The position numbers and the translations under genes are program-made. From the NCBI GenBank assembly GCA_963783375.1, contig CAWANH010000029.1, positions 1,568,001 to 1,632,000 of the forward strand: 64,000 nucleotides of DNA, read 5' to 3'. This DNA comes from Candidatus Eiseniibacteriota bacterium (GTDB taxonomy: Bacteria > Eisenbacteria > RBG-16-71-46 > JABDJR01). This document shows positions 31,921 to 49,034 of the stretch, piece after piece (position 1 is the stretch's first letter; the number at the start of each line of letters is the position of its first letter). The notes under the pieces were generated by a model. It did no database searches, was not told the DNA's origin, and was given only the letters and a program-made list of their open reading frames with translations.

Positions 31921-34594
31921 TCAACGGCGGATCAGATCGCTGACCCAGTCCACCATGATGGTGGTGGGTGGGAGCGTGGCGGCGCCCCGGGGGGAGACGG
32001 CCAGGAAGCGATCCCCGGCGGCGTCGGGGCACCAGCGGTTCCGGGTTGCATTGCCGGCGCTCACCGGAAGCCGGAAACGGCGCAGAGGCGTCCCGGTCCG
32101 GATGCCGCCACCGTCCCCCAGGGTCACATCCACCGTCATCAGGTCCCGGTCGGGGTTCGAGTAGCAGATTTCGTGACCGTTCCGGCTCCAGAACGGTTCG
32201 ATGCCCCCGTCGATCGAGACCTGCCACTTTCCCGAAGGTTCGGGGAAGGCCTGAACGTAGACTTCGTTCCGCCCCGTCTCGCCGGTTTGATAGGTCACCC
32301 AGTGCCCGTCCGGGGATATCGCGGGCTTGCCCTCGGCGAAAGGCCCGGTGGCGACCGCGATCGAATCGCCGCCGGCGACGGGAACCGCCAGATTGTCCCA
32401 TCTCGAGTTCGGGCTCAGGGTGTGGATGAGGATGTACGCCCCGTCCGGAGACCAGGAGTACGGTTCCTTGTAGCTGCCGCTCCGGTAGACCGCGGTAGCG
32501 CTTCCGGTCCCGTCCGCCGCCTTCACGAAGATGTCGTACTGCCCGTTCCGGTCGGAAGCGAACGCCACGCGCCGCCCGTCGGGAGACCAGGTGCCGCAAA
32601 TGTCGTCCGCGGGGTCCAGGGTGAGCCGCGTCCGGGTGCCCCGGTCGAGATCCAGGACCCAGAGGTCATCCGTGCCGCTGACGGCGTCGGTGATCTCCAC
32701 CACCACCCGGCGTCCATCGGGGGAGATCGCGGGGTTTCCGTATCGGGCCTCGCCGAACGGAAGCTCCGAGGCCCGGCCATCCCGGTCCAGGAGGACCAGC
32801 TTGTTGGTGGGTTGACCCTGTTCCCGGTAGGCCAGGATCCCGTCGTCCGAGGTCGAGAACTGGGCGAGGCCCAGGCCGCTCGCTCCGATCGACTCGAGGA
32901 CCGGAAACGGCTCGCCGGTGAACTTCAGGGATCCGGCGTCGAACTTCCGGGCGAGGAGGGTGCGGTCCTGGACCCAGAGGATGTAGCCGGGAGGAACGTA
33001 TTCCATGCGGCTGTCGGTCTTCTCCAGCGTCCGTGTCTTGAACGATCCCAGCTCACCCACCCGGATCACGCTGGGACGGTTGTCGGAGTACTGCACCTGG
33101 AAGAGGAAGTGCTTGCCGTCGGGGAGGAAGTACGGCCAGGCGTGAACCTGCTCGAGATCGGCGTGGTTCAGGACCGAGGCCGGCCCGGGGATCCCCCCGG
33201 TGTCCGGAACCTGCCGAAGCGAATCGCTCGAGTTACCGTCGAAGACGATGAACCCCTCCGGGCTCCAGGAACCGTCCGCCCCGGTCGGGGCCTCGCACAG
33301 GATCTGCGCGGGGCCGCCGGCAATGTCCACCCGCCGGAGTTTCCCCTTGGTGAAGAACGCCACCGACCGGCTGTCGGGCGACCAGATGGCCCGCCGGGCA
33401 CCCTCGGTTCCGGGCAAGGGGTGCGCCTCGAGAGCGTTGAGGGGCTGAATCCAGAGCATCGCGGTCCCGGTGGTGTCGGTGGCGTTGAACGCCATGTAGC
33501 GCCCATCCGGGGAGAGCTTGGGGGAGTCCATGACCGAGACCCCGGCCGGAGCCGGCACCTGATAGCGAAGCGTGTGGTGAACCGCCTCCGCGGGCCGGTT
33601 GAGGGCGTACCAGCCCACCGCGGCGATCAGGGCCGCGCCGAGAACCCCGGCCAGGCCCCACGCCATCCGCTCCCGGCTCCGCCGCCGGTGGGCCACCGGC
33701 TTCGGCACCCCCGCCGCCGATCCCCCCTCCGCGATCCACTCCAGCTGCAGCGCCACGTCGTGCGCGGTCTGCCACCGCTCCTCCGGATCCTTCTTCAGGC
33801 ACGTCCTGACCACCCGGTCCAGCGCCGGCGGCGCCAAGCGGCATCACCTGCGAGATCGGCGCCGGGCTCGCCGACATGATCGACGCGATCAGCGACGCCT
33901 GGCTCTTCCCCTCGAACGCCCGCCGCCCCGTCACCATCTCGTACAGCACCGCCCCCAGCGCGAAGATGTCCGTCCGCGCGTCCGCCTCCACCCCCTCCAG
34001 CTGCTCCGGCGCCATGTACTGGAACGTCCCCAGGATCGTCCCCTCCGCGGTCAGCGGCGTCCGCGGATCCTGCGTCGGCGCCTTCATCGTCAACGACGAC
34101 GACGGCGCCTCCGCCTCCACCCCCATCCGCGCCAGGCCGAAGTCCAAGAGCTTCACCCCGCTCCGGGTCAGCATCACGTTCCCCGGCTTCAGGTCCCGGT
34201 GCACCACCCCGCTCCGGTGCGCCGCGGCCAGCGCCTCCGCCATCTGACGACCGATCCGCAGCACGTCCTCCAGCGGCAACGGTCCCCCGGCCACCTTGTC
34301 GGCCAGGGTCTGCCCCTCCAGGTACTCCATCACCAGGAAGTCCGTGCCGTCCTCGTGACCCACGTCGTAGAGCGCGCAGATGTGGGGATGGGTCAGGGAC
34401 GAGATCGCCCGCGCCTCCCGGTCGAACCGCTGCCGGAGCTCCGGGTTGGCCGAGAGGTGCGTCGGCAGGATCTTGATCGCCACCGAGCGGTCCAGACGCG
34501 TGTCCTTGGCCCGGTAGACCTCACCCATCCCTCCCGCGCCGAGGGGTTCGAGGATCTCGTACGGGCCCAGGCGATGGCCGGGGTCGAGGGGCAT
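31921..34594 (-). CDS. Ser/Thr kinase - TM - TolB/PD40 beta-propeller, copy 4 (1-bp insertion at 33836-33837)
   Basis: ORFs 33233-34594 and 31921-33837 join if the extra A (GCGCCAAGCGG versus GCGCCAGCGG in copy 2) is removed. Confidence 0.88.
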
Positions 34595-35442: not shown

Positions 35443-36271
35443 TCAACGTTCCAGGAACTCGAGCACGGTCCGGTTCACGAGATCCGGCTTCTCCTGGATC
35501 ACGCTGTGGGAGGCCCCCGGCACGATCCAGAGCTCGGCCCCGGGAATCGCGCCGGCCAGCTTTCGGGTGTGCTCCTCCCGCACCACGTCGTGCTCCCCCG
35601 CCGCGATCAGGGTCTTGGCCCGGATCCGGCCCAGTTCCTCGACGGTGTAGTTCGGCTGATCCCGCCAGAGCGCGATGACCTTGTTCATGGCCGCCTCGTA
35701 ATGGGAGGTGTCCGGAGCCACCGAATCGTAGAACCGCTTCATGTCCGGCCCGAAATCCGCCGCGGTGGCGGTGTCGCTCCAGGCCGCGTCGTCCGGGTTC
35801 ATCCCGTCCGGCCGGAAGTTGGCCCCGAAGGCCACCAGGTGGTCGATCCGATCGGGGTGGTTCATGGCCAGGTCGAGGCCCACGATCCCCCCATCGCTCC
35901 ACCCCATCACGTCGGCGCGCCGGACCCCCAGCGAATCCATGAGCGCGATCACGTCCTCGGCCATGGCGTGGTAGGAGAGCGGGCCGTCGCGGTCGGTGGT
36001 CCGGCCCTGGCCGCAGGCGTCGGGCACGATCACCCGGTAACGCGCGGCGAAAAACGGGACCTGGGCGGCGAACTGCGCGCCGCTTCCCGCGCCGCCGTGG
36101 AGCAGCAGCAAGGCGGGCCCGGCCCCGGTCTCCTCGTAGTACATCCGGATGCCGTTCAGGCGCACGATGCGGCCCGCGGGCGGTGCCGGCGCCGAGGCCT
36201 CGGAAACGAACGAACCGATGAGCGCGAGCGCCAGCACCAGGGTCCAGGCCGAACCGCCGACCGTTCGTCAT
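35443..36271 (-). CDS. Exported alpha/beta hydrolase (probable 1-bp frameshift in the signal peptide near 36250)
   Basis: LLHGG, GWSDGG, GEHD, PGASH; the AAGGAG RBS precedes ATG 36271, which is one base out of frame with ORF 35443-36237. Confidence 0.85.
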
Positions 36272-36352: not shown

Positions 36353-37630
36353 TCAGTTCGCCGCCGTCTTCCGCCGCCCTTCGGGATCCAGCTCGTCCTC
36401 GCGGCGGTAGCGGACCAGGGACGGGGTCTTGGCCGCCACCCATCCGGTCATGAGGAGGCAGGCCAGCCCCCCGCTCACCACCGAGAACGGAGCGCCGAGG
36501 AAGTTGGCCACCGTCCCCGCCTCCATCTCCCCGAGCTGGGGGCCGCCCATGAAGAAGATCATGTTGACGCTGGTCATCCGCCCGCGGAGGCGGTCGGGGG
36601 TGGCGAGCTGGCGGATGATGTTCCGGAGCACGGTGGAAACCGTGTCCGCGCCGCCCACCACGGCCAGGCAGGCGAAGGTGAGCCAGAAGCTCCGGGAAAA
36701 CCCGAAGGCCACGGTGGCCAGGCCGAAAGCCGCGATCGACCAGAGAAGGACCTTGCCCCGGCGGTCGATGCGATCGACCACGGACACCATGATGAGGCTC
36801 ATGACCACCGCTCCCACCGCCGGCGCCGCGTAGAGGAGTCCGTAGCCATGGGCGCCGACCTTGAGGATGTCCTGGGCGAAGATGGGGAGGAGCGCGGTGG
36901 CCGAAGCGAAGAACGTGGCCAGAAAGTCGAGGAGCATGCTGGAGCGGATGACCGGGGCCGAGAACACGAACCGGAGTCCTTCGAGCGCGGCCTTGTAGTT
37001 GATGCGACTTGCCTCCTCGAGCTTCCGCCGCGGAATGTCCCGCATGAGGAGAAGTCCCACGATCACCGCCAGGAACGACACCGCGTTCAGGGCGTAGGCC
37101 CACCCCACCCCCAGACCGGCGATCACCGCCCCCGCGACCGCCGGGCCGAGGACCGAGGCGGTCTGGAACATGATGGTGTTGAGGCTGATCGCGTTGGGGA
37201 AGTCCTTCACCGGCACCAGGTTCGGGATCAGGGACTGGCGGGCGGGGCTGTCGAAGGGGGCGGCGGCGGCGCTGATCCCGGCCAGGAGATAGATCGGCCA
37301 GAGGACGGTGAGCCCCCGGAAAGTGAGGACGGCCAGCACCACGGCCACCCCCATCATGAAGCTCTGGGTGACCAGGAGAAGCTTCCGGCGGTCCAGGGCG
37401 TCGGCCACCACGCCGCCGACCAGGGAGAAGACGATGATCGGCACCACCTTGACCAGGCCCACCAGTCCCAGGGCCAGGCCCTTGTGGGACGGGGAGACCA
37501 GGAGCGAGACGTGCCAGAGGATGGCCACGTTTTGCATGAGGGTGCCCGAGGCGGAAACGAGCTGGCCCCCCCACAGGAGCCGGAAGTTCCGGTGCCGGAG
37601 GGCGATGAAGGGCGAGGTGAGGCGGTTCAA
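36353..37630 (-). CDS. MFS transporter (EntS/H+ antiporter-like)
   Basis: ALRHRNFRLLW.GQ, GGVVADALDRRKLL, TPDRLRGR; GGAG before TTG 37630. Confidence 0.9.
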   Translation of the reverse strand: MNRLTSPFIALRHRNFRLLWGGQLVSASGTLMQNVAILWHVSLLVSPSHKGLALGLVGLVKVVPIIVFSLVGGVVADALDRRKLLLVTQSFMMGVAVVLAVLTFRGLTVLWPIYLLAGISAAAAPFDSPARQSLIPNLVPVKDFPNAISLNTIMFQTASVLGPAVAGAVIAGLGVGWAYALNAVSFLAVIVGLLLMRDIPRRKLEEASRINYKAALEGLRFVFSAPVIRSSMLLDFLATFFASATALLPIFAQDILKVGAHGYGLLYAAPAVGAVVMSLIMVSVVDRIDRRGKVLLWSIAAFGLATVAFGFSRSFWLTFACLAVVGGADTVSTVLRNIIRQLATPDRLRGRMTSVNMIFFMGGPQLGEMEAGTVANFLGAPFSVVSGGLACLLMTGWVAAKTPSLVRYRREDELDPEGRRKTAAN

Positions 37631-37721
37631 GGATCTCCCTGTTGGCGGGTCCCGCGGTTCGGCCCGCCGGCCCGGACCCGTCTTCTGTTCCGGCGGCCGA
37701 TGCAAACCGGGGATTCTAGCC

Positions 37722-38315: not shown

Positions 38316-38375
38316 TGTCGGGGGGACTGGCAGCCGCGAGGGCGCCCCTCCGGACACACCCCGAGGAGGTTGGAC

Positions 38376-38849
38376 GTGCCCGAACACCGGGAAAACTGGG
38401 AAGAGCGCTGGAAGGCGATCAACGAGATCCTCGAAACCGAAGTCGTCCGGAACCAGTCCCAGCTCGTCAAGCTGTTGAAACAGAAAAACTTCCGGGTGAC
38501 GCAGTCCAGCGTCTCCCGGGACCTGGCCGAGATGGGGGTGGCCAAGGCCGAGGGCCGCTATCTCTCCCCCCAGACCCTGGCCGCCGGGGACATCACTCCC
38601 CCGGGGCTGGCCGATCTGGGCGGGTTCGTGGTCCAGACCGCCGCCGCGGGCCCCCACCTGCTGGTGGTGAAGACCACCCCGGGGGTGGCCTCATCGGTGG
38701 CCCTGGCCCTCGACCGGTCCGGCTGGCCGGAGGTGGTGGGCACCATCGCCGGCGACGACGCGATCTTCGTGGCCGTGGCCGGGCGTGCCGGCCAGCTCCG
38801 GGTCGAAGCCCGGCTGAACGTCCTCGTGGAGGAGTCCCAACGTGTCTGA
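38376..38849 (+). CDS. argR: Arginine repressor
   Basis: VTQSSVSRDL, VVKTTPG.A, GTIAGDD; GGAGG before GTG 38376. Confidence 0.95.
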   Translation: MPEHRENWEERWKAINEILETEVVRNQSQLVKLLKQKNFRVTQSSVSRDLAEMGVAKAEGRYLSPQTLAAGDITPPGLADLGGFVVQTAAAGPHLLVVKTTPGVASSVALALDRSGWPEVVGTIAGDDAIFVAVAGRAGQLRVEARLNVLVEESQRV

Positions 38850-40119
38850 AACGAAACTCGCCCTCACGCCGACCACCGGCCCCACCACCCGGCGCCGGAT
38901 CGTCCTCGCGTTCAGCGGCGGGCTCGACACCTCGTTCCTGGTTCCCTGGCTGGCGGAGCGTCACCAGGCCGAGATCGTCACCATCACCGTGGACACCGGC
39001 GGGCTGGACCAGGACGCGCGCGACGACCTCGGGCGGCGCGCCGAAGCACTGGGGGCGACCGAGCACGTCCTGATCGAAGCGCGCGACGTCTTCTTCCACG
39101 AAACCCTGCGGTTCCTGATCATGGGCAACGTGCTCCGCGGCCATCTCTACCCCCTCTGCGTGGGCGCGGAGCGGGGGCTCCAGGCGCGCATGATCGCCGA
39201 GACCACCCGCGGCCTGGGGGCGACCACGGTGGCCCACGGCTCCACCGCGGCCGGAAATGACCAGGTCCGTTTCGAGGTGGCGCTCCGGACCCTGGCCCCC
39301 GACCTGGAGATCCTCGCCCCGGTCCGCGACGAGGGGTTCTCCCGCGCCGCCGAGGCCGAGTTCCTGGCCCGGCAAGGCATCGACTGGCCGGCCGAGCGCG
39401 CGGCCTACTCCGTGAACAGCGGTCTCTGGGGGACCACGATCGGCGGGCGGGAAACCCACGGCACCGCCGAGTCGCTCCCGGAAAGCGCGTGGGTCCTCAC
39501 CCGGGGCGCCTTCGACCGGCCCCGTGTCCCCGAGCGCCACCGCATCGCCTTCGAGCGCGGTATCCCCGCCGCGCTGGACGGCGAGCCCCTGACCCCGGTC
39601 GCCCTCATCGAGCGGCTGAACGCCGAAGCCGGTGCCTTCGGGATCGGCCGGGGGATCCACCTCGGGGACACGATCTTCGGGCTCAAGGGCCGGGTGGCCT
39701 TCGAGGCCCCCGCCGCACAGGTCCTCATCGCCGCGCACCGGGAGCTGGAGAAGCTCACCCTCACCGCCCGCCAGCAGCGGGTGAAGGACCAGCTCGCCGC
39801 GGTCTACGGCGATCTCGTTCACGAGGGGCAGTCCCTGGAGCCGGCCTGCCGGGACATCGAAGCGCACTTCCTCCGCTCCCAGGAGCGGGTGACCGGCGAG
39901 GTGAACCTCCTGTTCCGGCCGGGAAGCCTCTTCGTGGAGGGAGTCTCCTCCCCGTTCTCGCTCAAGGAGGCGTCCCGCGGGGTCTACGGTGAGGCGGCGG
40001 GCGAGTGGAGCGCGGCCGACGCCCGCGGGTTCTCCCGGCTGGCCGCGCTTCCGGCCATGCTCCACGCCCGGGCCTCCGAGGCCCCAACGCCGGTCCCGGC
40101 GGACGGGGACGCGGCGTGA
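38842..40119 (+). CDS. argG: Argininosuccinate synthase
   Basis: LAFSGGLDTS, HGST..GNDQVRF, GLKGRVAFEAPA. Confidence 0.95.
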   Translation: MSETKLALTPTTGPTTRRRIVLAFSGGLDTSFLVPWLAERHQAEIVTITVDTGGLDQDARDDLGRRAEALGATEHVLIEARDVFFHETLRFLIMGNVLRGHLYPLCVGAERGLQARMIAETTRGLGATTVAHGSTAAGNDQVRFEVALRTLAPDLEILAPVRDEGFSRAAEAEFLARQGIDWPAERAAYSVNSGLWGTTIGGRETHGTAESLPESAWVLTRGAFDRPRVPERHRIAFERGIPAALDGEPLTPVALIERLNAEAGAFGIGRGIHLGDTIFGLKGRVAFEAPAAQVLIAAHRELEKLTLTARQQRVKDQLAAVYGDLVHEGQSLEPACRDIEAHFLRSQERVTGEVNLLFRPGSLFVEGVSSPFSLKEASRGVYGEAAGEWSAADARGFSRLAALPAMLHARASEAPTPVPADGDAA

Positions 40120-41192
40120 AGCGCGTGCTGCTGGACAAGATCGGTTCGGTCACCCTCAACTGCCGGCTCTCCCGCGAGGTGCGCCTGGGGAGCGACATCC
40201 CCGCGGTGGAAGGGGGGGTGATCGCGGTGCGGGTGCTCACCTCGAAGAGCACCTACGACCAGATCGAGCTTCCTTCCGGGCGCTTCTCCAAGCTGAAGCC
40301 CGGCGACGTGGTGGCGGGCGCGCTCGGCCATCGGAAGGCCCTCTTCGGGTACTCCGGGCACCTCCCGGAGTCGGTGAGCCCGGGCGACCGCGTGCACATC
40401 CTGAACATGGGCGGGGTGATCGGGATCTGTGACGGGGTGAACCCCGATCTCGGCCGCCCCTTCGAGGCCGAAGTGCTGGGACAGGTCCTGGCCTTCCCCT
40501 ACCTCGGTGAGCGGGTGGGCCTCCCCGCCCACATCACCCAGGGCGCGCTCCCGGTGGACGGCGCGCTCGACACCGGAAACGTCCCCATCGTGGCCGTGGT
40601 GGGCACCTGCATGAACGCGGGAAAGACCCAGGCCGCGTGCGCGCTGATCCAGGCCTTCGCCCATCGCGAGCTGACCGTGGCCGCGGGCAAGGCCACCGGG
40701 GTCTCGCTCCGCCGGGACATCCTGGCCATGGAGGACGCGGGGGCGCGGCGGACCCTGGTGTTCACCGACATGGGGGTGGTGACCACCACCTCGGACAACG
40801 CCCCCGGAGTGGCCCGGGCCATCCTCACCCACCTCGCGGCGGGAACCCCCGACGTGATCGTGCTGGAGCTGGGCGACGGCCTCCTGGGTCTCTACGGGGT
40901 GGACGCGATCCTGAACGACCCCGCGATCCGCGAGTCGCTCCACGCGGTGGTCCTGGCCGCCAACGACCCGGTGGCGGCCTGGGGCGGGGTGAGGCTGCTG
41001 CGCGAACGGCACGCACTCGACGCCCATGTGGTGACCGGTCCCGCCACCGACAACGCGGCGGGAACCAGGCTGGTGGAGCGCGAGACCGCGGTCCCCGGGG
41101 TAAACGCCCGAACCGATCCCGCCCGGCTGGCCGAAACCGTGCTCGCGCGGCTCCCGCTTCCCGCCGCCACCGGGGAGGCGACCGGTGTCTGA
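40116..41192 (+). CDS. DUF1611/DgcN-like P-loop protein within the arg operon
   Basis: VVGTCMNAGKT P-loop, GKATG, DVIVLELGDGL; overlaps the argG stop and the argC start. Confidence 0.7.
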   Translation: MKRVLLDKIGSVTLNCRLSREVRLGSDIPAVEGGVIAVRVLTSKSTYDQIELPSGRFSKLKPGDVVAGALGHRKALFGYSGHLPESVSPGDRVHILNMGGVIGICDGVNPDLGRPFEAEVLGQVLAFPYLGERVGLPAHITQGALPVDGALDTGNVPIVAVVGTCMNAGKTQAACALIQAFAHRELTVAAGKATGVSLRRDILAMEDAGARRTLVFTDMGVVTTTSDNAPGVARAILTHLAAGTPDVIVLELGDGLLGLYGVDAILNDPAIRESLHAVVLAANDPVAAWGGVRLLRERHALDAHVVTGPATDNAAGTRLVERETAVPGVNARTDPARLAETVLARLPLPAATGEATGV

Positions 41193-42297
41193 AACCACCA
41201 CCCCGGCCCGGGCCGCGCACCACCCGTCCCCCCCCGCCTCGCGCACCGTCCCCGCGGTGATTCTGGGGGGAACCGGGTACGTTTCGGGGGAGCTGCTCCG
41301 CATCCTCTCCGGCCACCCGGTGCTCCGTCCCCAGGCCGTGATATCCACCAGCCGGGCCGGGGAACCGGTGGTGGAGGCATTCCCGCATCTGGCGGGAACC
41401 GGGATCGAGGCGCTCTCCTTCCGGTCGATCGGGTCGGTCCGGTTCCGGCGCGACGAGCCGGCGGCGATCTTCGCCGCCACCCCCCACGGGGGAACCGCCG
41501 CCGTGCTGGACGCCCTCCTCGCGCGGGCGGAGGCCCTGGGGGCGCCGGTTCACGCCGTGGACCTCTCCGCCGATTTCCGCTTCGGCGACCCCGCGGGGTT
41601 CGAGACGGTCTACGGAACGCCCCATGGCGCCCCGGGACGGATTCGCGACTTCGTATGCGCGGTGCCCGAGCACGCCCCGGCCATACCGGTGCGGCATGCC
41701 GCCCAGCCCGGATGCTTCACCACCGCCGCGGTCCTCGCCGCCTACCCGTTCTTCGCGCTCGATCTTGTCGAGGGCCCGGTGTTCGTCTCGGCGGTGACCG
41801 GAAGCTCGGGGAGCGGGAGGACACCGGGGGCGGGGACCCACCACCCCGAGCGGCGGAGCGCGCTCTACGCCTACGCCCCTCTCGCCCACCGGCACGAAGC
41901 GGAGATGCGGGCGCTCCTCGGCGCGGCGCGCGGGGGCTTCGAACCGGAGGTCGAGTTCGTTCCCCACTCCGGACCGTTCGTCCGGGGAATCCACGCCACC
42001 GTCCGCCTGGGTCTCAAGTCCCCCGCGGAAACCGGGGACCTGGCGGCCGCGGTCGCCGCCTTCTACGCCGCGAGCCCCTTCGTCCGGGTCGAGGCCCGGC
42101 CGCCGCGACTGAACGAGGTGGTCGGGACCAACCTCTGCCGCCTGGGCGTCACCGCCCGGGGCCGCACCGTGGTGGTGACCTCGGTGATCGACAACCTGGT
42201 GAAGGGGGCGGCGGGCGGGGCCGTGCAGTGGATGAACCGGCTCCTGGATCTCCCGGAAACCGCGGGACTCCAGCTCCCCGGACTGGGGGTATTCTGA
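41185..42297 (+). CDS. argC: N-acyl-gamma-glutamyl-phosphate reductase
   Basis: GGTGYVSGEL, ATPHG, DLSADFR, PGCF, TGSSGSG, HRH..E, IDNLVKGAAG. Confidence 0.95.
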   Translation: MSETTTPARAAHHPSPPASRTVPAVILGGTGYVSGELLRILSGHPVLRPQAVISTSRAGEPVVEAFPHLAGTGIEALSFRSIGSVRFRRDEPAAIFAATPHGGTAAVLDALLARAEALGAPVHAVDLSADFRFGDPAGFETVYGTPHGAPGRIRDFVCAVPEHAPAIPVRHAAQPGCFTTAAVLAAYPFFALDLVEGPVFVSAVTGSSGSGRTPGAGTHHPERRSALYAYAPLAHRHEAEMRALLGAARGGFEPEVEFVPHSGPFVRGIHATVRLGLKSPAETGDLAAAVAAFYAASPFVRVEARPPRLNEVVGTNLCRLGVTARGRTVVVTSVIDNLVKGAAGGAVQWMNRLLDLPETAGLQLPGLGVF

Positions 42298-42299
42298 TC

Positions 42300-43454
42300 G
42301 TGAACCCTATCGCCGCCGGGGCCTCGGCCCTCCTCGACGTCTTCCCTCATATCGACCTGGAGCCGGTCCGGGGGGAGGGCCCCTATCTCTTCACCTCAGA
42401 CGGGCGCCGCTACCTCGACTTCTACGGCGGCCATGCGGTGGCGCTTTTCGGGTACGGGCATCCGGACCTTCTGGCCGCGCTCGAAACCCAGGCCCGCGAC
42501 CTGATCTTCCAGAGCAATGCCGTGCCGCTCGCCGTACGGGAACGGGCGGCGGCGGCGCTCCTCGCTTTCGGTCCCGCCGGTCTCGACCGGGTGTTCTTCG
42601 TCAACTCCGGGGCCGAGGCCAACGAGAACGCGCTCCGGATCGCCTTCCGCGCCACCGGCCGGAGCCGGGTGGCCGCGGTGGCCGGGGGCTTCCACGGGCG
42701 CACCGCGGCGGCGGGGGCGGTCACCGCCGGCCACGAGCGCTGGTTCGGGTTCCCGCGAACCCCCTTCGAGGTGGACACGGTTCCCTTCGACGACGAAGAC
42801 GCCCTCGAAACTGCCGTCACCGGAGACACCGCCGCGGTGATCCTGGAGCCGGTCCAGGGCATGGCCGGGGCACGGTCCATGTCCCCCGGGTTTCTGGCCC
42901 GGGCCCGCCAGCTCACCCACGAACGGGGCGCGGTGCTGGTCTTCGACGAGGTCCAGTGCGGAATGGGCCGGACCGGCCGGCCGTTCGCCGCCCAGGCCTT
43001 CGGGGTCGTCCCCGACGTCCTCACCACCGCCAAGGGCCTGGCCGGAGGCTTTCCGGCGGGGGCGGTCCTGGTGTCGGACGCGGTGGCCTCGGGACTCGGC
43101 CACGGCGACCTGGGAACGACCTTCGGCGGGGGGCCTTTGGCCGCCGCGCTCATCGAAACGGTGATCCGGATCCTCGAGCGCGAAGCCCTCCTCCCCCGGG
43201 TCCGACGACTCTCGGCGCGGCTCACAAGGGAATGCCTCGGGGGTCCGATCACCGCCGTTCAGGGGATGGGCTATCTCCTGGGCCTACGCACCGAGCCCCC
43301 GGCGAAGGAGATCCTCGGCGCCCTTCGGTCCCGGGGCATCCTGGCCGGGGGGAGCGCCGACCCGCACGTGGTCCGGCTCCTCCCTCCCCTCATCATCGGG
43401 GACGAGCAGGTGAACGAGTTCACCACCGCCCTCGCGGAGATCCGACATGCGTAA
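42300..43454 (+). CDS. argD: N-acylornithine aminotransferase
   Basis: YLDFYGGHAV, NSGAEANE, FHGRT, EPVQG, DEVQCGMGRTG, TAKGLAGG, GTTFGG. Confidence 0.93.
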   Translation: MNPIAAGASALLDVFPHIDLEPVRGEGPYLFTSDGRRYLDFYGGHAVALFGYGHPDLLAALETQARDLIFQSNAVPLAVRERAAAALLAFGPAGLDRVFFVNSGAEANENALRIAFRATGRSRVAAVAGGFHGRTAAAGAVTAGHERWFGFPRTPFEVDTVPFDDEDALETAVTGDTAAVILEPVQGMAGARSMSPGFLARARQLTHERGAVLVFDEVQCGMGRTGRPFAAQAFGVVPDVLTTAKGLAGGFPAGAVLVSDAVASGLGHGDLGTTFGGGPLAAALIETVIRILEREALLPRVRRLSARLTRECLGGPITAVQGMGYLLGLRTEPPAKEILGALRSRGILAGGSADPHVVRLLPPLIIGDEQVNEFTTALAEIRHA

Positions 43455-44457
43455 GTTTCTCGATCTCTCCGATCTATCCGACGACCGACTGGAGGCGGTC
43501 CTCACCCGCGCGCGCGAGCTGGAGTCCCGTCCCAACGGGCACGCTCTTCGCGGGCAGACGGTGGGACTCCTGTTCATGAACCCGTCGCTGCGCACCCTGG
43601 CCTCGATGGAGGCGGGGGTGAGCCAGCTCGGGGGGCGAAGCTTCGTCATCACCCCCGGCCAGAGCTCCTGGCAGCTCGAGACCCGGGACGGAACGGTGAT
43701 GGACGGAGTCGCGGTCGAACACGTACGCGAGGCCATCCCGGTGCTGGCCCAGTACGCCACCGCGCTCGGGGTCCGTTGCTTCGCCAAGGGGCAGGACCTC
43801 GGCGAGGATCTGGCCGACGGGGTGATCCGGAAGATGGCCGAGCTGTCGCCGGTCCCCTTCATCAACCTGGAGTCGGCAATCTCCCACCCCTGCCAGGCCC
43901 TGGCCGACTGGAAGACCCTGGAGGATCTGAACGTGCCGCGGAGCGGCGGGAAGTTCGTGCTCTCCTGGGCCTATCACCCCAAGCCGCTCCCCTACGCGGT
44001 GCCCGCCTCCGCCCTCCAGATGGCGGCCCGCCGGGGAATGGACGTGGCGGTCCTCCGCCCGGAGGGATTCTCCCTCCCCGAGCCGATCATGACGCGGGCG
44101 CGCGTGCTCGCCGAGGCCTCGGGGGGGACGATCACCGAAACCGCGAACCGGAAGGAGGCCATGGAGGGGGCGCACGTCCTCTACGCCAAATCCTGGGCGG
44201 CGCCGGAGTTCTACGGCCGTCCCGAGGAGGAGAAGCCACTGCGGGAGGAGTACCGGGACTGGTGCGTGGGCGCGGACTGGTTCTCCGGGGCGCGACCCGA
44301 TGCACGCTTCATGCACTGCCTCCCGGTGCGACGGAACGTGAAGGTGACCGACGAGGTGCTGGACGGGCCGCGAAGCGTGGTGGTGAAGCAGGCCGGGAAC
44401 CGCCTCCACGCCCAGAAGGCGTTGTTGGTGGAGATGCTCGGCGAGGAGGCGGCGTGA
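43447..44457 (+). CDS. argF: N-acylornithine carbamoyltransferase (ArgF'), probably N-succinylornithine-specific
   Basis: FMNPSLRT, HPCQ, WAYHPKPLP and HCLPVRRN mark the AOTCase/SOTCase family; specificity loop MDGVAVEH. Confidence 0.9.
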   Translation: MRKFLDLSDLSDDRLEAVLTRARELESRPNGHALRGQTVGLLFMNPSLRTLASMEAGVSQLGGRSFVITPGQSSWQLETRDGTVMDGVAVEHVREAIPVLAQYATALGVRCFAKGQDLGEDLADGVIRKMAELSPVPFINLESAISHPCQALADWKTLEDLNVPRSGGKFVLSWAYHPKPLPYAVPASALQMAARRGMDVAVLRPEGFSLPEPIMTRARVLAEASGGTITETANRKEAMEGAHVLYAKSWAAPEFYGRPEEEKPLREEYRDWCVGADWFSGARPDARFMHCLPVRRNVKVTDEVLDGPRSVVVKQAGNRLHAQKALLVEMLGEEAA

Positions 44458-45413
44458 CCGGCGCCGGCGATCGCGAGTCGACCCTGGCCGCCCTCAGCCG
44501 GGCCATGCCCTACGTGCGGCTCTACAAGGGGCGGGTCTTCGTATTGAAGCTGGGGGGGGCGCTCACCGCCGAGACCCCGGTGCTCCGCCACCTGGCCGAG
44601 GAGATGGCGATCCTGGCCGAGTTCGGGATCCGGCTGGTGGTGGTCCACGGCGGCGGCCCCCAGGCCACCCGGCTCGCCGGGCGTCTGGGGGTGCCGACCC
44701 GGATGGTCGGCGGGCGCCGGGTGACCGATGCCGCCGCGCTGGAGGCGGTGGTGATGGCCCTGAACGGCACGGTGAACACCGCGGTCCTGGCCGCCTGTCG
44801 GGCCGCGTCGTTGGGCGCGGTGGGGATCTCCGGGGTGGACGGCGGGATCGTCCGGGCCCGGGTGCGGGGTCCGGTCCGGGTCGAGGGGGACGCCGAGCCG
44901 GTGGACTTCGGCGAGGTGGGCGAGGTGCTCTCGGTGGACGGCGAGGCGCTCCGGCGGCTCCTGGACGCCGGGTTCGTCCCGATTCTCAGCCCGGTGGCCG
45001 CCGACGACTCCGGCCGGGTGCTCAACATCAACGCGGACACCGTGGCCGCCGAGACCGCGGCGGCCCTGGGGGCGGAGAAGCTCATCTTCCTCACCGAGAC
45101 CCCGGGGATCCTGGAGGACAAGTCCGATTCCCGCTCGCTCATCAGCTACCTGGATCTCGATCGGCTGGCGGAGATGGAGGCGAGCGGCGCGGTGGACGGA
45201 GGCATGCTCCCCAAGGTGAACGCGACCCGCGCGGCGCTGGCCGCCGGCGTTTCCCGGGTGCACATGGTGGGGGCGCGCGAAAAAGGGAGCCTGTTGGTCG
45301 AGGTGTTCACCAACGAGGGGGCGGGGACCATGGTGGTGCGGAACCTGGCCGAGCTGGAGTCGGCGGTCCGGATGAACGGGACCGCCCCGGTGGAGCTCGG
45401 AGCCGGAGCATGA
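44454..45413 (+). CDS. argB: N-acylglutamate kinase
   Basis: VLKLGG, VHGGGPQ, GRRVTD, NINAD, GGMLPK; no fused GNAT domain. Confidence 0.95.
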   Translation: MTGAGDRESTLAALSRAMPYVRLYKGRVFVLKLGGALTAETPVLRHLAEEMAILAEFGIRLVVVHGGGPQATRLAGRLGVPTRMVGGRRVTDAAALEAVVMALNGTVNTAVLAACRAASLGAVGISGVDGGIVRARVRGPVRVEGDAEPVDFGEVGEVLSVDGEALRRLLDAGFVPILSPVAADDSGRVLNINADTVAAETAAALGAEKLIFLTETPGILEDKSDSRSLISYLDLDRLAEMEASGAVDGGMLPKVNATRAALAAGVSRVHMVGAREKGSLLVEVFTNEGAGTMVVRNLAELESAVRMNGTAPVELGAGA

Positions 45414-46504
45414 GCCACGCGGAGCTTCTGGCGCTTCATCGTTCCCTGGTGGAGATTCCCTCGGTCTCGGGCGGCGAGGGGGCGATCGCCTCGTTCCTGG
45501 CCGACGTGCTCGAAGCCCGAGGCGTCGCGGTCGAGCGGGTCGGATCGAGCCTCCTCGCGCTCCTCGGCCGGGGCCCGGTGGTGTGCCTGAACACCCACCT
45601 CGACACCGTCCCCCCGTCCGGGGCGTGGACCCGTGACCCGTATCGCGCGTCGGTGGAGGACGGGCGCGTCTACGGCCTGGGCTCGAACGACGCGAAGGCC
45701 TCGGTGGCGGCGATGGTGGCCGCGTTCCTCCGCTTCGCGGAGTACGGCGAGGACCTCGGGCTGACCCTGGCCCTCACCCTGGCCGCCGAGGAGGAGACCG
45801 CCAACCGTGGGAGCGCGGCCCTGGTGGAGGCGCTCCGGGTCCGGGGGTTCACCCCGGAGGCGGTGGTGGTGGGCGAGCCCACCGGCCTTGACGTGGCGGT
45901 GGCCCAGAAGGGGCTCCTGCTCCTGGAACTGGTGGCGCGCGGTGAAACCCACCACGCCGCCCATGCCCGGGCCCTGGGAGCGGTCAACCCGATCGCCGTC
46001 CTGGCCGCGGACCTGGTCGCCTTGGAGGGGATGGATCTGGGGGGAGACGATCCCGACCTGGGTCCGGTCACCGCGGTTCCCACCGTGCTCCGCGCCGGCG
46101 AGGCGCGGAACATGGTCCCCGCCGAGGCCTCGTGCGTGATCGATGTCCGCACCAACCCGTCGCCGGAGCCGTCCCGTATCGTCGAGAGGCTGCGGGAGGC
46201 GCTCCGCTCCGAGGTTCGCGTCCGGAGCGGCCGGCTCCGCCCGGTGGCCCTCGACCCCGGGCATCCCCTGGTCCGGGCCGCCCTGCGCGCCCGCCCGGAG
46301 GCGAGCCTCTTCGGCTCCCGGGGGCTCTCGGACCTGGTGTGCTTCCCCGGGGTGCCGGGGATCAAGGCCGGCCCGGGCCGGAGCGAGCGGTCCCATACCC
46401 CGGACGAGTTCGTCTTGGAGGAGGAGATCTTGGAGGGCGCCCGGTTCTACGAGGCGCTGGTGCGGGAGTGCCGTTCCTTCCTCGCCGAGGGGGTGCGGTC
46501 GTGA
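45410..46504 (+). CDS. argE: M20 deacylase (N-acylcitrulline/ornithine deacylase)
   Basis: HLDTV, GLGSNDAK, EEE, GEPT, SHTPDE. Confidence 0.85.
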   Translation: MSHAELLALHRSLVEIPSVSGGEGAIASFLADVLEARGVAVERVGSSLLALLGRGPVVCLNTHLDTVPPSGAWTRDPYRASVEDGRVYGLGSNDAKASVAAMVAAFLRFAEYGEDLGLTLALTLAAEEETANRGSAALVEALRVRGFTPEAVVVGEPTGLDVAVAQKGLLLLELVARGETHHAAHARALGAVNPIAVLAADLVALEGMDLGGDDPDLGPVTAVPTVLRAGEARNMVPAEASCVIDVRTNPSPEPSRIVERLREALRSEVRVRSGRLRPVALDPGHPLVRAALRARPEASLFGSRGLSDLVCFPGVPGIKAGPGRSERSHTPDEFVLEEEILEGARFYEALVRECRSFLAEGVRS

Positions 46505-47754
46505 CCGGGCCGGAGGACGGAGGCATGCCGGTGGACGCGCCCGCCGGGGCCCGGCTCTGGGACCGGGGCGAGCCCCTGGACCTTGCGGTGCTCCTCTACA
46601 CCGCCGGGGAGGATCACGCCCTCGACGACCGGCTGGTCCCCCACGATGTCCGGGCTTCGATCGCCCACGCGGCCATGCTTCGCGAGGCTGGGTACCTGAC
46701 CGCGGCGGACTTCAGCGCGATCGAGACGGGACTCACGTCGCTGGCCGACACTCATGCTCGCTGGGAGTGGCGCGTGGCCCTGGAGGAGGAGGACGTTCAC
46801 ACCGCCCTCGAGAACCGGCTGGTGGGGATGATCGGCGAGGCGGGGCGGCGCGTCCACCTGGGGCGGTCCCGGAACGACCAGGTGGTGGCCGCGGTGCGTC
46901 TCTGGCTTCGCGACGCCCTGGAATCGCTCGCCTCGGACGCCGAGGCCTCGGCCGACGCGCTCGACGCTTTGGGAGGGCGCCAGGGCGCCCTCCCCATGCC
47001 GGGCTACACCCATCTCCAGCGGGCCATGCCGTCCACCGTGGGGCTCTGGGCCGGGGCGTTTGCCGAAGAACTCCGCGACGACGCCGAGGGGCTCCGCGCC
47101 GCCCGCCGGCGCGCGAACCGGAATCCGTTGGGGTCGGCGGCGGGGTACGGGGCGCCGGCGCTCGGTCTGGATCGCGAGCGCACCACCGAGCTTCTGGAGT
47201 TCGACCGAACCCAGGAACCGGTGACCGCGGTCCAGCTCTCGCGCGGCAAGGCCGAAGCGTCGGCTCTCTTCGAGGCGTCGCTCCTGGCTCAGGACCTGGG
47301 GCGCCTCGCCGCCGATCTTTGTCTGTTCGCCACCCGGGAGTTCGGGTTCGTGGAGCTCCCAGCCGCGTTCACCACCGGGTCCTCGATGATGCCCCAGAAG
47401 CGGAACCCGGACCTCTTCGAGCTGGCGCGCGGGCGGAGCGGCGAGGCGGTCGCGGCCCTGGTCGAACTGCTGGGGATCACCGCCAAAATGCCGTCCGGCT
47501 ATCACCGCGACCTGCAGTTGCTGAAGAAGCCGCTCTTCCGGGGGTTCGATTCGGTGGAGGCCACGGCGCGATTGCTCGCCCACGCGATCGGCGGCGTGCG
47601 GTTCCGTGAGGATCGGTTGCGGGCGGCCATGGATCCGTCGCTCCGCGCCGCGGAGGAGGCCTACCGCCTGGTCCGCGAGGAGGGCATCCCCTTCCGCGAG
47701 GCCTACCGGCAGGTGGCGACGGGGTTTCGGGCCGAGGCGCCGGTCGAGGAGTAG
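46501..47754 (+). CDS. argH: Argininosuccinate lyase
   Basis: EDVH, GRSRNDQV, PGYTHLQRA, GSSMMPQKRNPD. Confidence 0.95.
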   Translation: MTGPEDGGMPVDAPAGARLWDRGEPLDLAVLLYTAGEDHALDDRLVPHDVRASIAHAAMLREAGYLTAADFSAIETGLTSLADTHARWEWRVALEEEDVHTALENRLVGMIGEAGRRVHLGRSRNDQVVAAVRLWLRDALESLASDAEASADALDALGGRQGALPMPGYTHLQRAMPSTVGLWAGAFAEELRDDAEGLRAARRRANRNPLGSAAGYGAPALGLDRERTTELLEFDRTQEPVTAVQLSRGKAEASALFEASLLAQDLGRLAADLCLFATREFGFVELPAAFTTGSSMMPQKRNPDLFELARGRSGEAVAALVELLGITAKMPSGYHRDLQLLKKPLFRGFDSVEATARLLAHAIGGVRFREDRLRAAMDPSLRAAEEAYRLVREEGIPFREAYRQVATGFRAEAPVEE

Positions 47755-47789: not shown

Positions 47790-49034
47790 TTACGGCAGCC
47801 GCACGATCCGCGCCGAGCGGCTCCCTCCCCCACCGGTCACGCGCACGAAGTAGATTCCGGCGGGGGCGGGACGGTCCTCCGCGTCGCGACCGTTCCAGGT
47901 CACGGTGATCGGGGCCTCGGGGAGCGCGGTCACCGCGCCTTCCCAGACCCGGCGGCCCTCCACGTCCACCACCCGGACCCGGGCCGCCCCTCCCGCGGGA
48001 AGGGAGAAGCTCACCGCCACCGGGCCGCGGCTGGGATTGGGAAACGGCGCGGCGAGGACGGGGCCGGGAAGGAAACCGGCCGGGACCCCGCTCACCGCGG
48101 GGGCGGTGCGCGTGGCCCACATGGTTCCGTTCATGGCCAGAAGGCTGTCGCGTCCCGAGGCCTCGGCCCAGCCGTCGTAGATGCTGCTGTTCCCGGGGGC
48201 CGCGCTCCCGTCGTCGATCGGAGAGCTGTCCCCGATGAACACGATCCGGCCGTTTCCGTAGGCGGCATGGGCGGCCATGACCCCGGCATTCCCGTGGGAG
48301 AGCCCGTTCATCCATACGTCACCGGTCACGCTCGGGTTGGTCGCGGGGTGGAGGGTCATGGTGGTGCCGTTGTGGAAGGAGAGTATGTCGGCCAGGCCGT
48401 TCACCCCGTTCACCACCGGGTTCTGGGGGTCGGTGTCCACGTTGTCGCTGTCCTGGGTGATGTTGTTGTTGGCTTCGCCGGTGCTGTCGAAGTGGGCCCC
48501 CCAGAGGTGCTGGCGGTCCAGGCGCCCCCAGATCTTCGGGGAGTCCGCCCCGTCATTGTTCCTGTCCGAGCCCGAGTGATCGCAGACCGCCACCAGTCCG
48601 CCCCCGTCCCGCACGTAATCGAAGATCGCGGTGGACTCCGCGGCGGTGAAGACGGTGTTGGGCTCGGGAACGATGAAAACGTCGTAGTTGGAGAGGTCGT
48701 AGGGATTCTGCGCGTCTCCGTAGCTGATCCCGTAGGCCGGGGTCAGGGTGGCCACCTCGTACCCCCGCTTCACCAGGTCGATGGCCCAGGAGGACACCGC
48801 GCCCAGCCAGTAGGTCCGGGGCGTGGACCAGGTCACCGTGCTCTGATCGGGGCTCGGAAGGGGCTGATCGGTGTCGATCTGCCAGTCGGCGTTCCCCGCG
48901 GTCTCGGCGTGGGTGTTGTCGAACAGGGCCCGGGGCGGGTCGGCGGACGCCGGGGCGGTCCGGCCGAGAGAGAACGCGGCGAGGGAGAGGGCGAGAATCG
49001 GGAGCAGGCGGTGCGGACGCATGGATGACCTCAT
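47790..49034 (-). CDS. Secreted protein with GATase-like N-domain and FlgD/T9SS-like C-terminal tail
   Basis: Signal peptide, ALFDNTHAETAGNADW, EPN, DHSGSDRN; tail PNPSRG...WNGRD...GIYFVR. Confidence 0.75.
   Translation of the reverse strand: MRSSMRPHRLLPILALSLAAFSLGRTAPASADPPRALFDNTHAETAGNADWQIDTDQPLPSPDQSTVTWSTPRTYWLGAVSSWAIDLVKRGYEVATLTPAYGISYGDAQNPYDLSNYDVFIVPEPNTVFTAAESTAIFDYVRDGGGLVAVCDHSGSDRNNDGADSPKIWGRLDRQHLWGAHFDSTGEANNNITQDSDNVDTDPQNPVVNGVNGLADILSFHNGTTMTLHPATNPSVTGDVWMNGLSHGNAGVMAAHAAYGNGRIVFIGDSSPIDDGSAAPGNSSIYDGWAEASGRDSLLAMNGTMWATRTAPAVSGVPAGFLPGPVLAAPFPNPSRGPVAVSFSLPAGGAARVRVVDVEGRRVWEGAVTALPEAPITVTWNGRDAEDRPAPAGIYFVRVTGGGGSRSARIVRLP

Follow-up and report, generated by a model that had tools for sequence, protein, structure and literature searches.

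A P-loop protein encoded between argG and argC is a candidate first enzyme of arginine biosynthesis in an Eisenbacteria operon

Organization of the arginine operon

The stretch of DNA analysed here (the window) comprises 64,000 nucleotides of the genome of Candidatus Eiseniibacteriota bacterium (assembly GCA_963783375.1, contig CAWANH010000029.1, positions 1,568,001 to 1,632,000 of the forward strand), and positions are counted from its first nucleotide. Between 38370 and 47754 the + strand carries a tightly packed arginine operon with the gene order argR-argG-X-argC-argD-argF'-argB-argE-argH, where X is a P-loop protein located between argG and argC (Table 1). Pfam and NCBIfam searches with the window's genes indicate that the operon holds every step of arginine biosynthesis but the first, and X is the likely candidate for this missing step.

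X is the sole gene of the operon that has no assigned family. No Pfam match was obtained at E ≤ 0.001, and at E ≤ 10 only P-loop fragments were detected (MobB, 0.0036; DUF1611, 0.03 over 39 residues; CbiA; DprA); NCBIfam searches at E values up to 1 returned nothing meaningful. An earlier reading of the sequence alone (the original prediction) had described X as the only unassigned gene and as translationally coupled to both of its neighbors, and the gene boundaries bear this out. X begins with a GTG at 40116 that forms a GTGA overlap with the stop codon of argG (TGA, 40117-40119), and its TGA stop codon (41190-41192) lies within an 8-nt overlap with argC, which begins with the GTG at 41185. 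The start was set at 40116, and not at the upstream GTG at 40005, because homologues align with X from residue 1. The two motifs on which the original prediction drew, GTCMNAGKT (residues 163-171) and ELGDG (residues 251-255), are both present. As its relatives described below make plain, X is a real conserved gene.

Table 1. Positions of the arginine operon genes, of the parts of X, and of related genes elsewhere
Feature	Location	Strand	Matches and remarks
argR, arginine repressor, directly 5' of argG	38370..38849	+	Pfam Arg_repressor 1.5e-15, Arg_repressor_C 1.6e-17
argG, argininosuccinate synthase	38842..40119	+	Pfam PF00764, PF20979
X, P-loop protein, 358 amino acids	40116..41192	+	
X, N-terminal all-beta domain, residues 1-135	40116..40520	+	Predicted local distance difference test (pLDDT) 89.3 in a separate model
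X, P-loop domain, about residues 153-345	40572..41150	+	BioD/CTP-synthase/DUF1611 type; VIA-align Z 15.9-17.1; hhalign
X, extended Walker A GTCMNAGKT, G163-T171	40602..40628	+	
X, invariant Lys192	40689..40691	+	Aligns with Lys of the BioD 'KP' motif
X, ELGDG, E251-G255, Walker-B-like	40866..40880	+	Aligns with BioD EGAGG and DUF1611 EGQG
argC	41185..42297	+	Pfam PF01118, PF22698
argD, class-III aminotransferase	42294..43454	+	Pfam PF00202 4e-89
argF', N-acylornithine carbamoyltransferase	43447..44457	+	NCBIfam NF003384, 397 bits (cut-off 288)
argB, N-acylglutamate kinase	44454..45413	+	TIGR00761, 217.9 bits; without GNAT domain
argE-like M20 deacylase	45410..46504	+	Pfam PF01546, PF07687; all ArgE/DapE models below cut-off
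argH, argininosuccinate lyase	about 46501..47754	+	Pfam Lyase_1 3e-49; start approximate
True DUF1611 gene of the window's genome, another contig	C28:418872-419462 of G000; L084:1045-2142	+	
X paralogue, genome G059, same phylum	L092:7210-8385	-	
X paralogue, genome G084, same phylum	L093:7618-8838	+	
X paralogue, genome G047, same phylum	L095:7110-8252	-	

Distribution of X and its linkage to arginine genes

Of 8,000 candidates scored in a word-indexed search with X, 6,845 proteins reached E ≤ 0.001, and an exhaustive search of 50%-identity representatives yielded 1,438 at E ≤ 0.001, 879 at E ≤ 1e-10 and 180 at E ≤ 1e-30. The 120 closest relatives listed are 69-98% identical to X, and almost all of them are unnamed or annotated as 'hypothetical'. 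When species-representative genomes were scanned, at least 600 stretches matched, and 588 of the 600 listed encode a relative. The best 80 loci were used for the analysis of gene neighborhoods, and these represent the closest relatives (48-78% identical) and not a random sample. They are found in the Planctomycetota, Myxococcota (including Corallococcus and Archangium), Acidobacteriota (including Holophaga), Gammaproteobacteria (Steroidobacteraceae and Chromatiales), Armatimonadota, Gemmatimonadota, Elusimicrobiota and Bdellovibrionales.

With the arginine genes at these loci located by tblastn using the window's own arginine proteins, argC was found after X at 78 of the 80 loci, the DNA ending at this point in the remaining two. 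Upstream of X, argG is present at 76 loci, argH at one, and three have no upstream arginine match. The order seen most often is argG-X-argC-argD-argF'-argB-argE-argH (28 loci), followed by that order lacking argE (21 loci); among the 63 clusters showing both argB and argH, argE is present in 39 and missing from 24. Long forms of X, each a single sequence, were also encountered (P0167, P0132 and P0392-P0401). P0167 combines X with an amino-acid-kinase domain. The other eleven are for the most part X joined to ArgG, ArgC or an aminotransferase of the ArgD type from the adjacent part of the operon, one of them having no Pfam domain, and are probably read-through gene calls. None of these forms was given weight as a clue to function.

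No ArgA or ArgJ detected in carriers of X

The genome to which the window belongs is 97% complete, and whole-genome profile searches detected neither ArgJ nor, above the cut-off, ArgA in it. The ArgA models match the operon's ArgB in the kinase part only, and the genome's sole weak match to ArgA's GNAT portion is a fusion of a RimI-like GNAT with DUF3335; small GNATs other than this match were not searched individually. In a set of 125 genomes from the phylum, each at least 90% complete, an orthologue of X (52-100% identity) occurs in eight. ArgJ was found in none of these eight, compared with 44 of the 125 overall, and ArgA was above the cut-off in none of the 125. Carriers outside of the phylum were represented by 50 of the 80 loci, taken mainly for their long flanks and most of them having both full 9-kb flanks. 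ArgJ was detected in none of these 50 genomes, whose completeness was not reported, as opposed to 10 of 14 control genomes, and ArgA again exceeded its cut-off in none. Sub-threshold ArgA matches were present in 37 of the 50, and those listed span only approximately the first 290 positions of the model, the part corresponding to ArgB. The phylogenetic profiling proposed with the original prediction therefore came out in its favor: arginine-linked orthologues of X never occur with ArgA or ArgJ in the genomes examined, this anticorrelation is strict, and co-occurrence with ArgJ is confined to distant paralogues.

The classical enzymes that head this pathway are ArgA (a kinase-like domain with a GNAT domain), ArgJ, the short GNAT synthases and the Bacteroidetes GNAT N-succinylglutamate synthase, and X would resemble them in its predicted product class, an N-acyl-L-glutamate, and in its position at the pathway head. 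Pfam and NCBIfam searches identified no GNAT and no ArgJ (N-terminal nucleophile type) catalytic domain in X; having neither fold, X would be a non-homologous replacement of the classical first-step enzymes.

Prior prediction for a Steroidobacter protein

A first-step role for this family is not new, as it has already been printed as a prediction. In GapMind 2026, Price et al. (bioRxiv 10.1101/2024.10.14.618325, 2026-07-02; PLoS Genetics, 12 Nov 2026, PMC13759103) predicted that the Steroidobacter protein ACG33_RS14135 is the first enzyme of the pathway and forms N-succinylglutamate. The grounds given in that paper are that homologues of ACG33_RS14135 are virtually always located in arginine operons, that they never occur with ArgA homologues, that the protein is weakly similar to DgcN (7XRJ; Foldseek root-mean-square deviation (rmsd) of 5.6 A, E 1.4e-7), and that position 92 is A, P, S or V in 90% of 70 neighboring ArgF' proteins; the role is offered there as a prediction only, with no experiment, acyl donor or mechanism (10.1101/2024.10.14.618325). 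The 'undescribed variant' of arginine biosynthesis that had been suggested for the window must accordingly be withdrawn, the same prediction having been made on the same grounds. A search of the literature on DUF1611, DgcN and D-glutamate, and succinylglutamate synthase found no further publication on the X family among the papers listed.

Orthologues from Steroidobacter and Steroidobacteraceae metagenome-assembled genomes, which are 58-61% identical to X and are encoded between argG and argC, were used as a proxy for ACG33_RS14135, and by every test run on these the two proteins appear to belong to the same family. The window's operon and the Steroidobacter system have in common the absence of ArgA, the presence of A, P, S or V at position 92 of ArgF', and a remote similarity to DgcN 7XRJ. 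The Steroidobacter-type clusters differ in being without argE, whereas the window's cluster includes both argE and argR. The 24 argE-less clusters are mostly gammaproteobacterial, and the N-acylcitrulline deacylase lacks a candidate there, as Price et al. also note for Steroidobacter.

The acyl group as indicated by ArgF'

The ArgF' protein of the operon passes the N-acetylornithine carbamoyltransferase model NF003384. In an alignment with PDB sequences, its Val90 (43714-43716) corresponds to Glu92 of the Xanthomonas acetylornithine enzyme. The PDB entry that ArgF' matches best is the E92V mutant 3L06; the wild-type 3KZC and the other position-92 variants 3L02 and 3L05 (aligned as Ala and Ser) and 3L04 come next. 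Replacement of Glu92 by A, P, S or V switches the specificity of this enzyme to N-succinylornithine (Price et al., citing Shi et al. 2007; 10.1101/2024.10.14.618325). The position is covered in the ArgF' neighbors of X at 68 of the 80 loci, where the residue is A in 56, V in seven, S in three, P in two and E in none. The occurrence of A, V, S or P in all 68 points to succinylated intermediates and, judged by this residue, the operon's ArgF' is of the succinyl type, in agreement with the original prediction.

Domain structure and conserved residues of X

An AlphaFold2 model of X built with 51 diverse homologues (mean pLDDT 96.4; predicted template modelling score (pTM) 0.93) has an all-beta domain (residues 1-126) that a linker connects to an alpha/beta P-loop domain (residues 158-345). 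All 51 homologues share G169, K170, K192 and E251, and at least 90% of them have T171 and D201; the N-terminal domain also has family-invariant residues, namely D7, E51, R56, D64 and R73. Searched alone against the PDB with Foldseek, this N-terminal domain matched nothing at E ≤ 0.001 (best 0.06), and VIA-align found no match with Z ≥ 5 among 48,161 PDB chains. The best VIA-align Z was 3.7 (rmsd 4.3, 62 aligned), with small barrels of the Tudor, LexA and EF-Tu-like kinds, which is well under the 7-8 stated for VIA-align as the typical best value of unmatched models. An ESM Atlas feature search gave a single unnamed cluster, whose value of 0.82 falls short of the lead threshold. As modelled, the N-terminal beta domain may represent a fold absent so far from solved structures.

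The P-loop half, by comparison, accounts for all Foldseek matches of the whole model in the PDB, with BioD 3OF5 the best at 5.5e-7, followed by signal recognition particle GTPases; the DUF1611 structures 2G0T and 2OBN and DgcN 7XRJ were not among the top 50 matches (to E 3e-5). Re-ranking with VIA-align gave Z scores of 17.1 for 2G0T (rmsd 3.0, 181 aligned) and 2OBN (2.7, 185), 16.8 for CTP synthase 7MIP (2.9, 188), 16.1 for BioD 3OF5 (3.2, 182) and 15.9 for DgcN 7XRJ (3.1, 186). The structural comparison with DgcN, which had been proposed as a check, thus yielded a likeness tied with those to BioD and CTP synthase and restricted to the P-loop domain. On these models, the likeness to DgcN reported in print is real but not specific.

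Relationship of X to DUF1611/DgcN and BioD

The original prediction also described X as a DUF1611/DgcN-like protein, and of this a remote likeness in the P-loop half stands, much weaker than was implied. X scored 14.2 bits against PF07755 (E 0.03), below the gathering cut-off of 25 bits, and the match covers only residues 151-189 around the P-loop of a domain of about 200 residues. The Rossmann-like N-terminal domain of the family, DUF1611_N (PF17396), gave no match up to E 10, and the DgcN model NF041892 (cut-off 480 bits) is absent from the NCBIfam matches of X up to E 1. In hhalign, the X family (51 sequences) aligned to a shallow alignment of 20 DUF1611 proteins with a probability of 56.8% (E 1.1e-4, 197 columns, P-loop domain only) and to seven BioD sequences from X-carrying genomes with one of 94.7% (E 6e-8, 112 columns); for DUF1611 against BioD the probability was 90.9%. 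The residues paired between X and BioD are GTCMNAGKT with GTDTGVGKT, K192 with the Lys of the 'KP' motif, D201 with the Asp of the 'DA' motif, and E251 with the Glu of EGAGG. When the X-family profile was searched against PDB sequences, BioD was likewise the best match (E 1.2e-4) with the second Lys included, and all matches were confined to the P-loop region.

The DUF1611/DgcN group (PF07755 plus PF17396; NF041892; structures 7XRJ, 2G0T and 2OBN) shares with X the fold of the P-loop domain and the GTxxxxGK and hhhE-G-x-G motifs, and DgcN, by name and citation, acylates the amino group of glutamate. It differs in having a Rossmann-like N-terminal domain and the sequence GKRT, where X has an all-beta N-terminal domain, GKT, and a second invariant Lys at which the hhalign alignment shows a gap in DUF1611. 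X was therefore rejected as a member of DUF1611/DgcN, on its family scores and its different N-terminal domain, its profile lying nearer to BioD. BioD for its part is a single domain of about 220-240 amino acids encoded in bio operons, whereas X, at 358 amino acids, has an extra N-terminal domain of 135 residues and is encoded in arginine operons; the BioD model PF13500 does not match X up to E 10, and a separate BioD is present in some X-carrying genomes.

A true DUF1611 gene is located on another contig of the window's genome. Its product scored 214.7 bits against PF07755, 81.2 bits against PF17396 and 146.5 bits against NF041892 (below the cut-off of 480), and its matches in the PDB include 2G0T (1.8e-39) and 7XRJ (4.8e-28). 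Since this protein matches both NF041892 and 7XRJ, DgcN is a DUF1611 protein, as the original prediction had stated, and X is something else. The open reading frame just 5' of the true DUF1611 gene looks, by eye and from its motifs, like one for a pyridoxal phosphate-dependent enzyme.

Predicted function of X

The linkage of X to arginine genes (78 of 80 loci), the lack of ArgJ and ArgA in its carriers (0/8 and 0/50) and the apparent succinyl type of its ArgF' make X the best candidate for the missing first step, and to this extent the original prediction is upheld. With either acyl donor considered, it is likely that X performs this step, with N-succinyl-L-glutamate as the predicted product. 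If so, thousands of genomes (Myxococcota, Acidobacteriota, Planctomycetota, Steroidobacteraceae and others) would rely for the committed step of arginine synthesis on a protein unrelated to ArgA and ArgJ, and a gap often left when the metabolism of uncultured bacteria is reconstructed would be closed. What remains of interest beyond the printed prediction is the N-terminal domain, which has no neighbor among solved structures, and the acyl donor, a question that print has not addressed.

BioD, CobB/CobQ and CTP synthase phosphorylate a carboxylate, carbamate or carbonyl oxygen, which is then attacked by a nitrogen nucleophile. X resembles these proteins in its P-loop Lys and Thr, second Lys, Asp and Glu, and in the carboxylate-ATP-amine chemistry proposed for it. 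Because X keeps this residue set of the ATP-dependent amidoligases, and is without the Rossmann-like domain and the P-loop variant of the DgcN type, we lean slightly toward an ATP-dependent succinate-glutamate ligase over a succinyl-CoA (coenzyme A) transferase; an ATP-dependent ligase was one of the alternatives named in the original prediction. The overall reaction would be succinate + ATP + L-glutamate -> N-succinyl-L-glutamate + ADP + phosphate. In such a mechanism the P-loop would bind Mg-ATP, Lys170, Lys192, Asp201 and Glu251 would serve to place the gamma-phosphate onto the succinate carboxylate, and the Arg-rich N-terminal beta domain (R56, R73) would hold glutamate, whose alpha-amine would attack the acyl phosphate. 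The succinylated intermediates would then pass through ArgB, ArgC, ArgD, ArgF' and ArgE, with ArgE freeing succinate for reuse. That X should both perform the first step and do so by BioD/CTP-synthase-type amidoligase chemistry is a tentative prediction, possible rather than probable. A broader and more speculative proposal is that X represents a new enzyme class, an ATP-dependent succinate-L-glutamate ligase combining a BioD/CTP-synthase-type domain with the unmatched beta domain, independent of CoA, recycling free succinate and distributed over many phyla, with the paralogues of about 30% identity acting as amide ligases for other products. An ATP-driven ligase, if confirmed, would be the first CoA-independent way into the arginine pathway and would extend BioD/CTP-synthase chemistry to amino-acid N-acylation.

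Several observations weigh against these proposals. Of the 125 phylum genomes, 73 have neither ArgJ, ArgA nor an orthologue of X, so the absence of ArgA and ArgJ is not diagnostic on its own; among five of the 73 that were sampled, four have only ornithine carbamoyltransferase-like proteins (35-37% identical to ArgF') and one has no match. A small or unrecognized GNAT synthase may be encoded elsewhere in the genome. The fold does not choose the donor, given the structural tie among DUF1611, CTP synthase, BioD and DgcN, and the hhalign score of X against DUF1611 is lowered by the shallowness of the alignment used, whose 20 sequences are 65-78% identical to the first. The residue roles mapped onto X are those we presume for BioD, the 3'-phospho-ADP moiety of CoA could be accommodated by an intact P-loop, and every first-step arginine enzyme known to us uses an activated acyl donor. 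DgcN, the only characterized relative that acylates the glutamate amine, is moreover named an N-acetyltransferase (in its NCBIfam name, its PDB title and Price et al.).

In an alternative with the same product, X would be an acyl-CoA-dependent N-succinyltransferase (succinyl-CoA + L-glutamate -> N-succinyl-L-glutamate + CoA) working in the manner of DgcN, a D-glutamate N-acetyltransferase, which is the reading implied by the printed prediction. Such an enzyme would acylate the same alpha-amine of glutamate as DgcN, and its use of a thioester would accord with the ArgA/ArgJ-type enzymes known to us, whose acyl donor is a thioester or an amide and not a free acid with ATP. The P-loop domain of X matches DUF1611 structures and DgcN as well as it does others (2G0T, Z 17.1; 7XRJ, Z 15.9), the 197 columns aligned to DUF1611 by hhalign include both the P-loop and the E-G-x-G motif, and a Foldseek match of the Steroidobacter protein to 7XRJ (E 1.4e-7) was reported by Price et al. 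Against this, X fails the family models of DUF1611 and DgcN and has no Rossmann-like N-terminal domain, the GKT and second Lys of BioD type that X keeps are missing from DUF1611 and its profile is nearer to BioD, and 7XRJ, 2G0T and 2OBN fall outside of its top 50 Foldseek matches; we regard the transferase as possible and only slightly less likely than the ligase. It is unlikely, in our view, that X serves arginine synthesis in some capacity other than first-step synthase, such as ArgJ-like acyl recycling (from N-acylcitrulline or N-acylornithine to glutamate), replacement of ArgE, or action as a P-loop regulator or metal chaperone. A second step is indeed unassigned in the 24 of 63 clusters without argE, and metallochaperones, HypB (Z 15.1-15.3) among them, are found within the SIMIBI P-loop proteins; ArgE-type M20 enzymes need metal. 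X is nevertheless kept both with argE (39 clusters, and in the window) and without it (24 clusters), the first step would be left unfilled in every carrier genome examined, and the invariant Arg, Asp and Glu residues of the N-terminal domain together with the BioD-like catalytic set fit a small-anion-binding enzyme better than a chaperone; we also know of no P-loop transacylase. That X is merely carried in the operon and has no arginine role is highly improbable. Paralogues of 30-34% identity do exist outside of arginine clusters, beside ABC (ATP-binding cassette) exporters, and ArgJ is present in nine of 11 of their carriers. The argG-X-argC position, however, is seen again in eight bacterial groups, with overlaps at both ends of the gene. 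The 80 loci show 48-78% identity and the 120 closest clusters no less than 69%, X and ArgJ or ArgA are strictly anticorrelated, and linkage of this kind does not persist by chance.

Paralogues of X and genes flanking the operon

The 30-34% identical paralogues occur in 11 genomes of the phylum and keep the same invariant residues in both domains. At the three loci that were annotated, two paralogues are located beside an ABC exporter (ABC_membrane and ABC_tran) and one beside CarboxypepD_reg and PGA_cap, and none has arginine neighbors. The paralogues may be amide-forming enzymes for an exported product.

The genes flanking the arginine operon in the window, at 47790-49034 (-) and 31921-33837 (-), are unrelated to arginine; one flanking product is a ThuA-like protein with a C-terminal FlgD_ig domain, and the other is a PD40/beta-propeller peptidase-like protein. 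Located 5' of argR are genes for an MFS_3 transporter (36353-37705, -) and an alpha/beta hydrolase (35443-36237, -).

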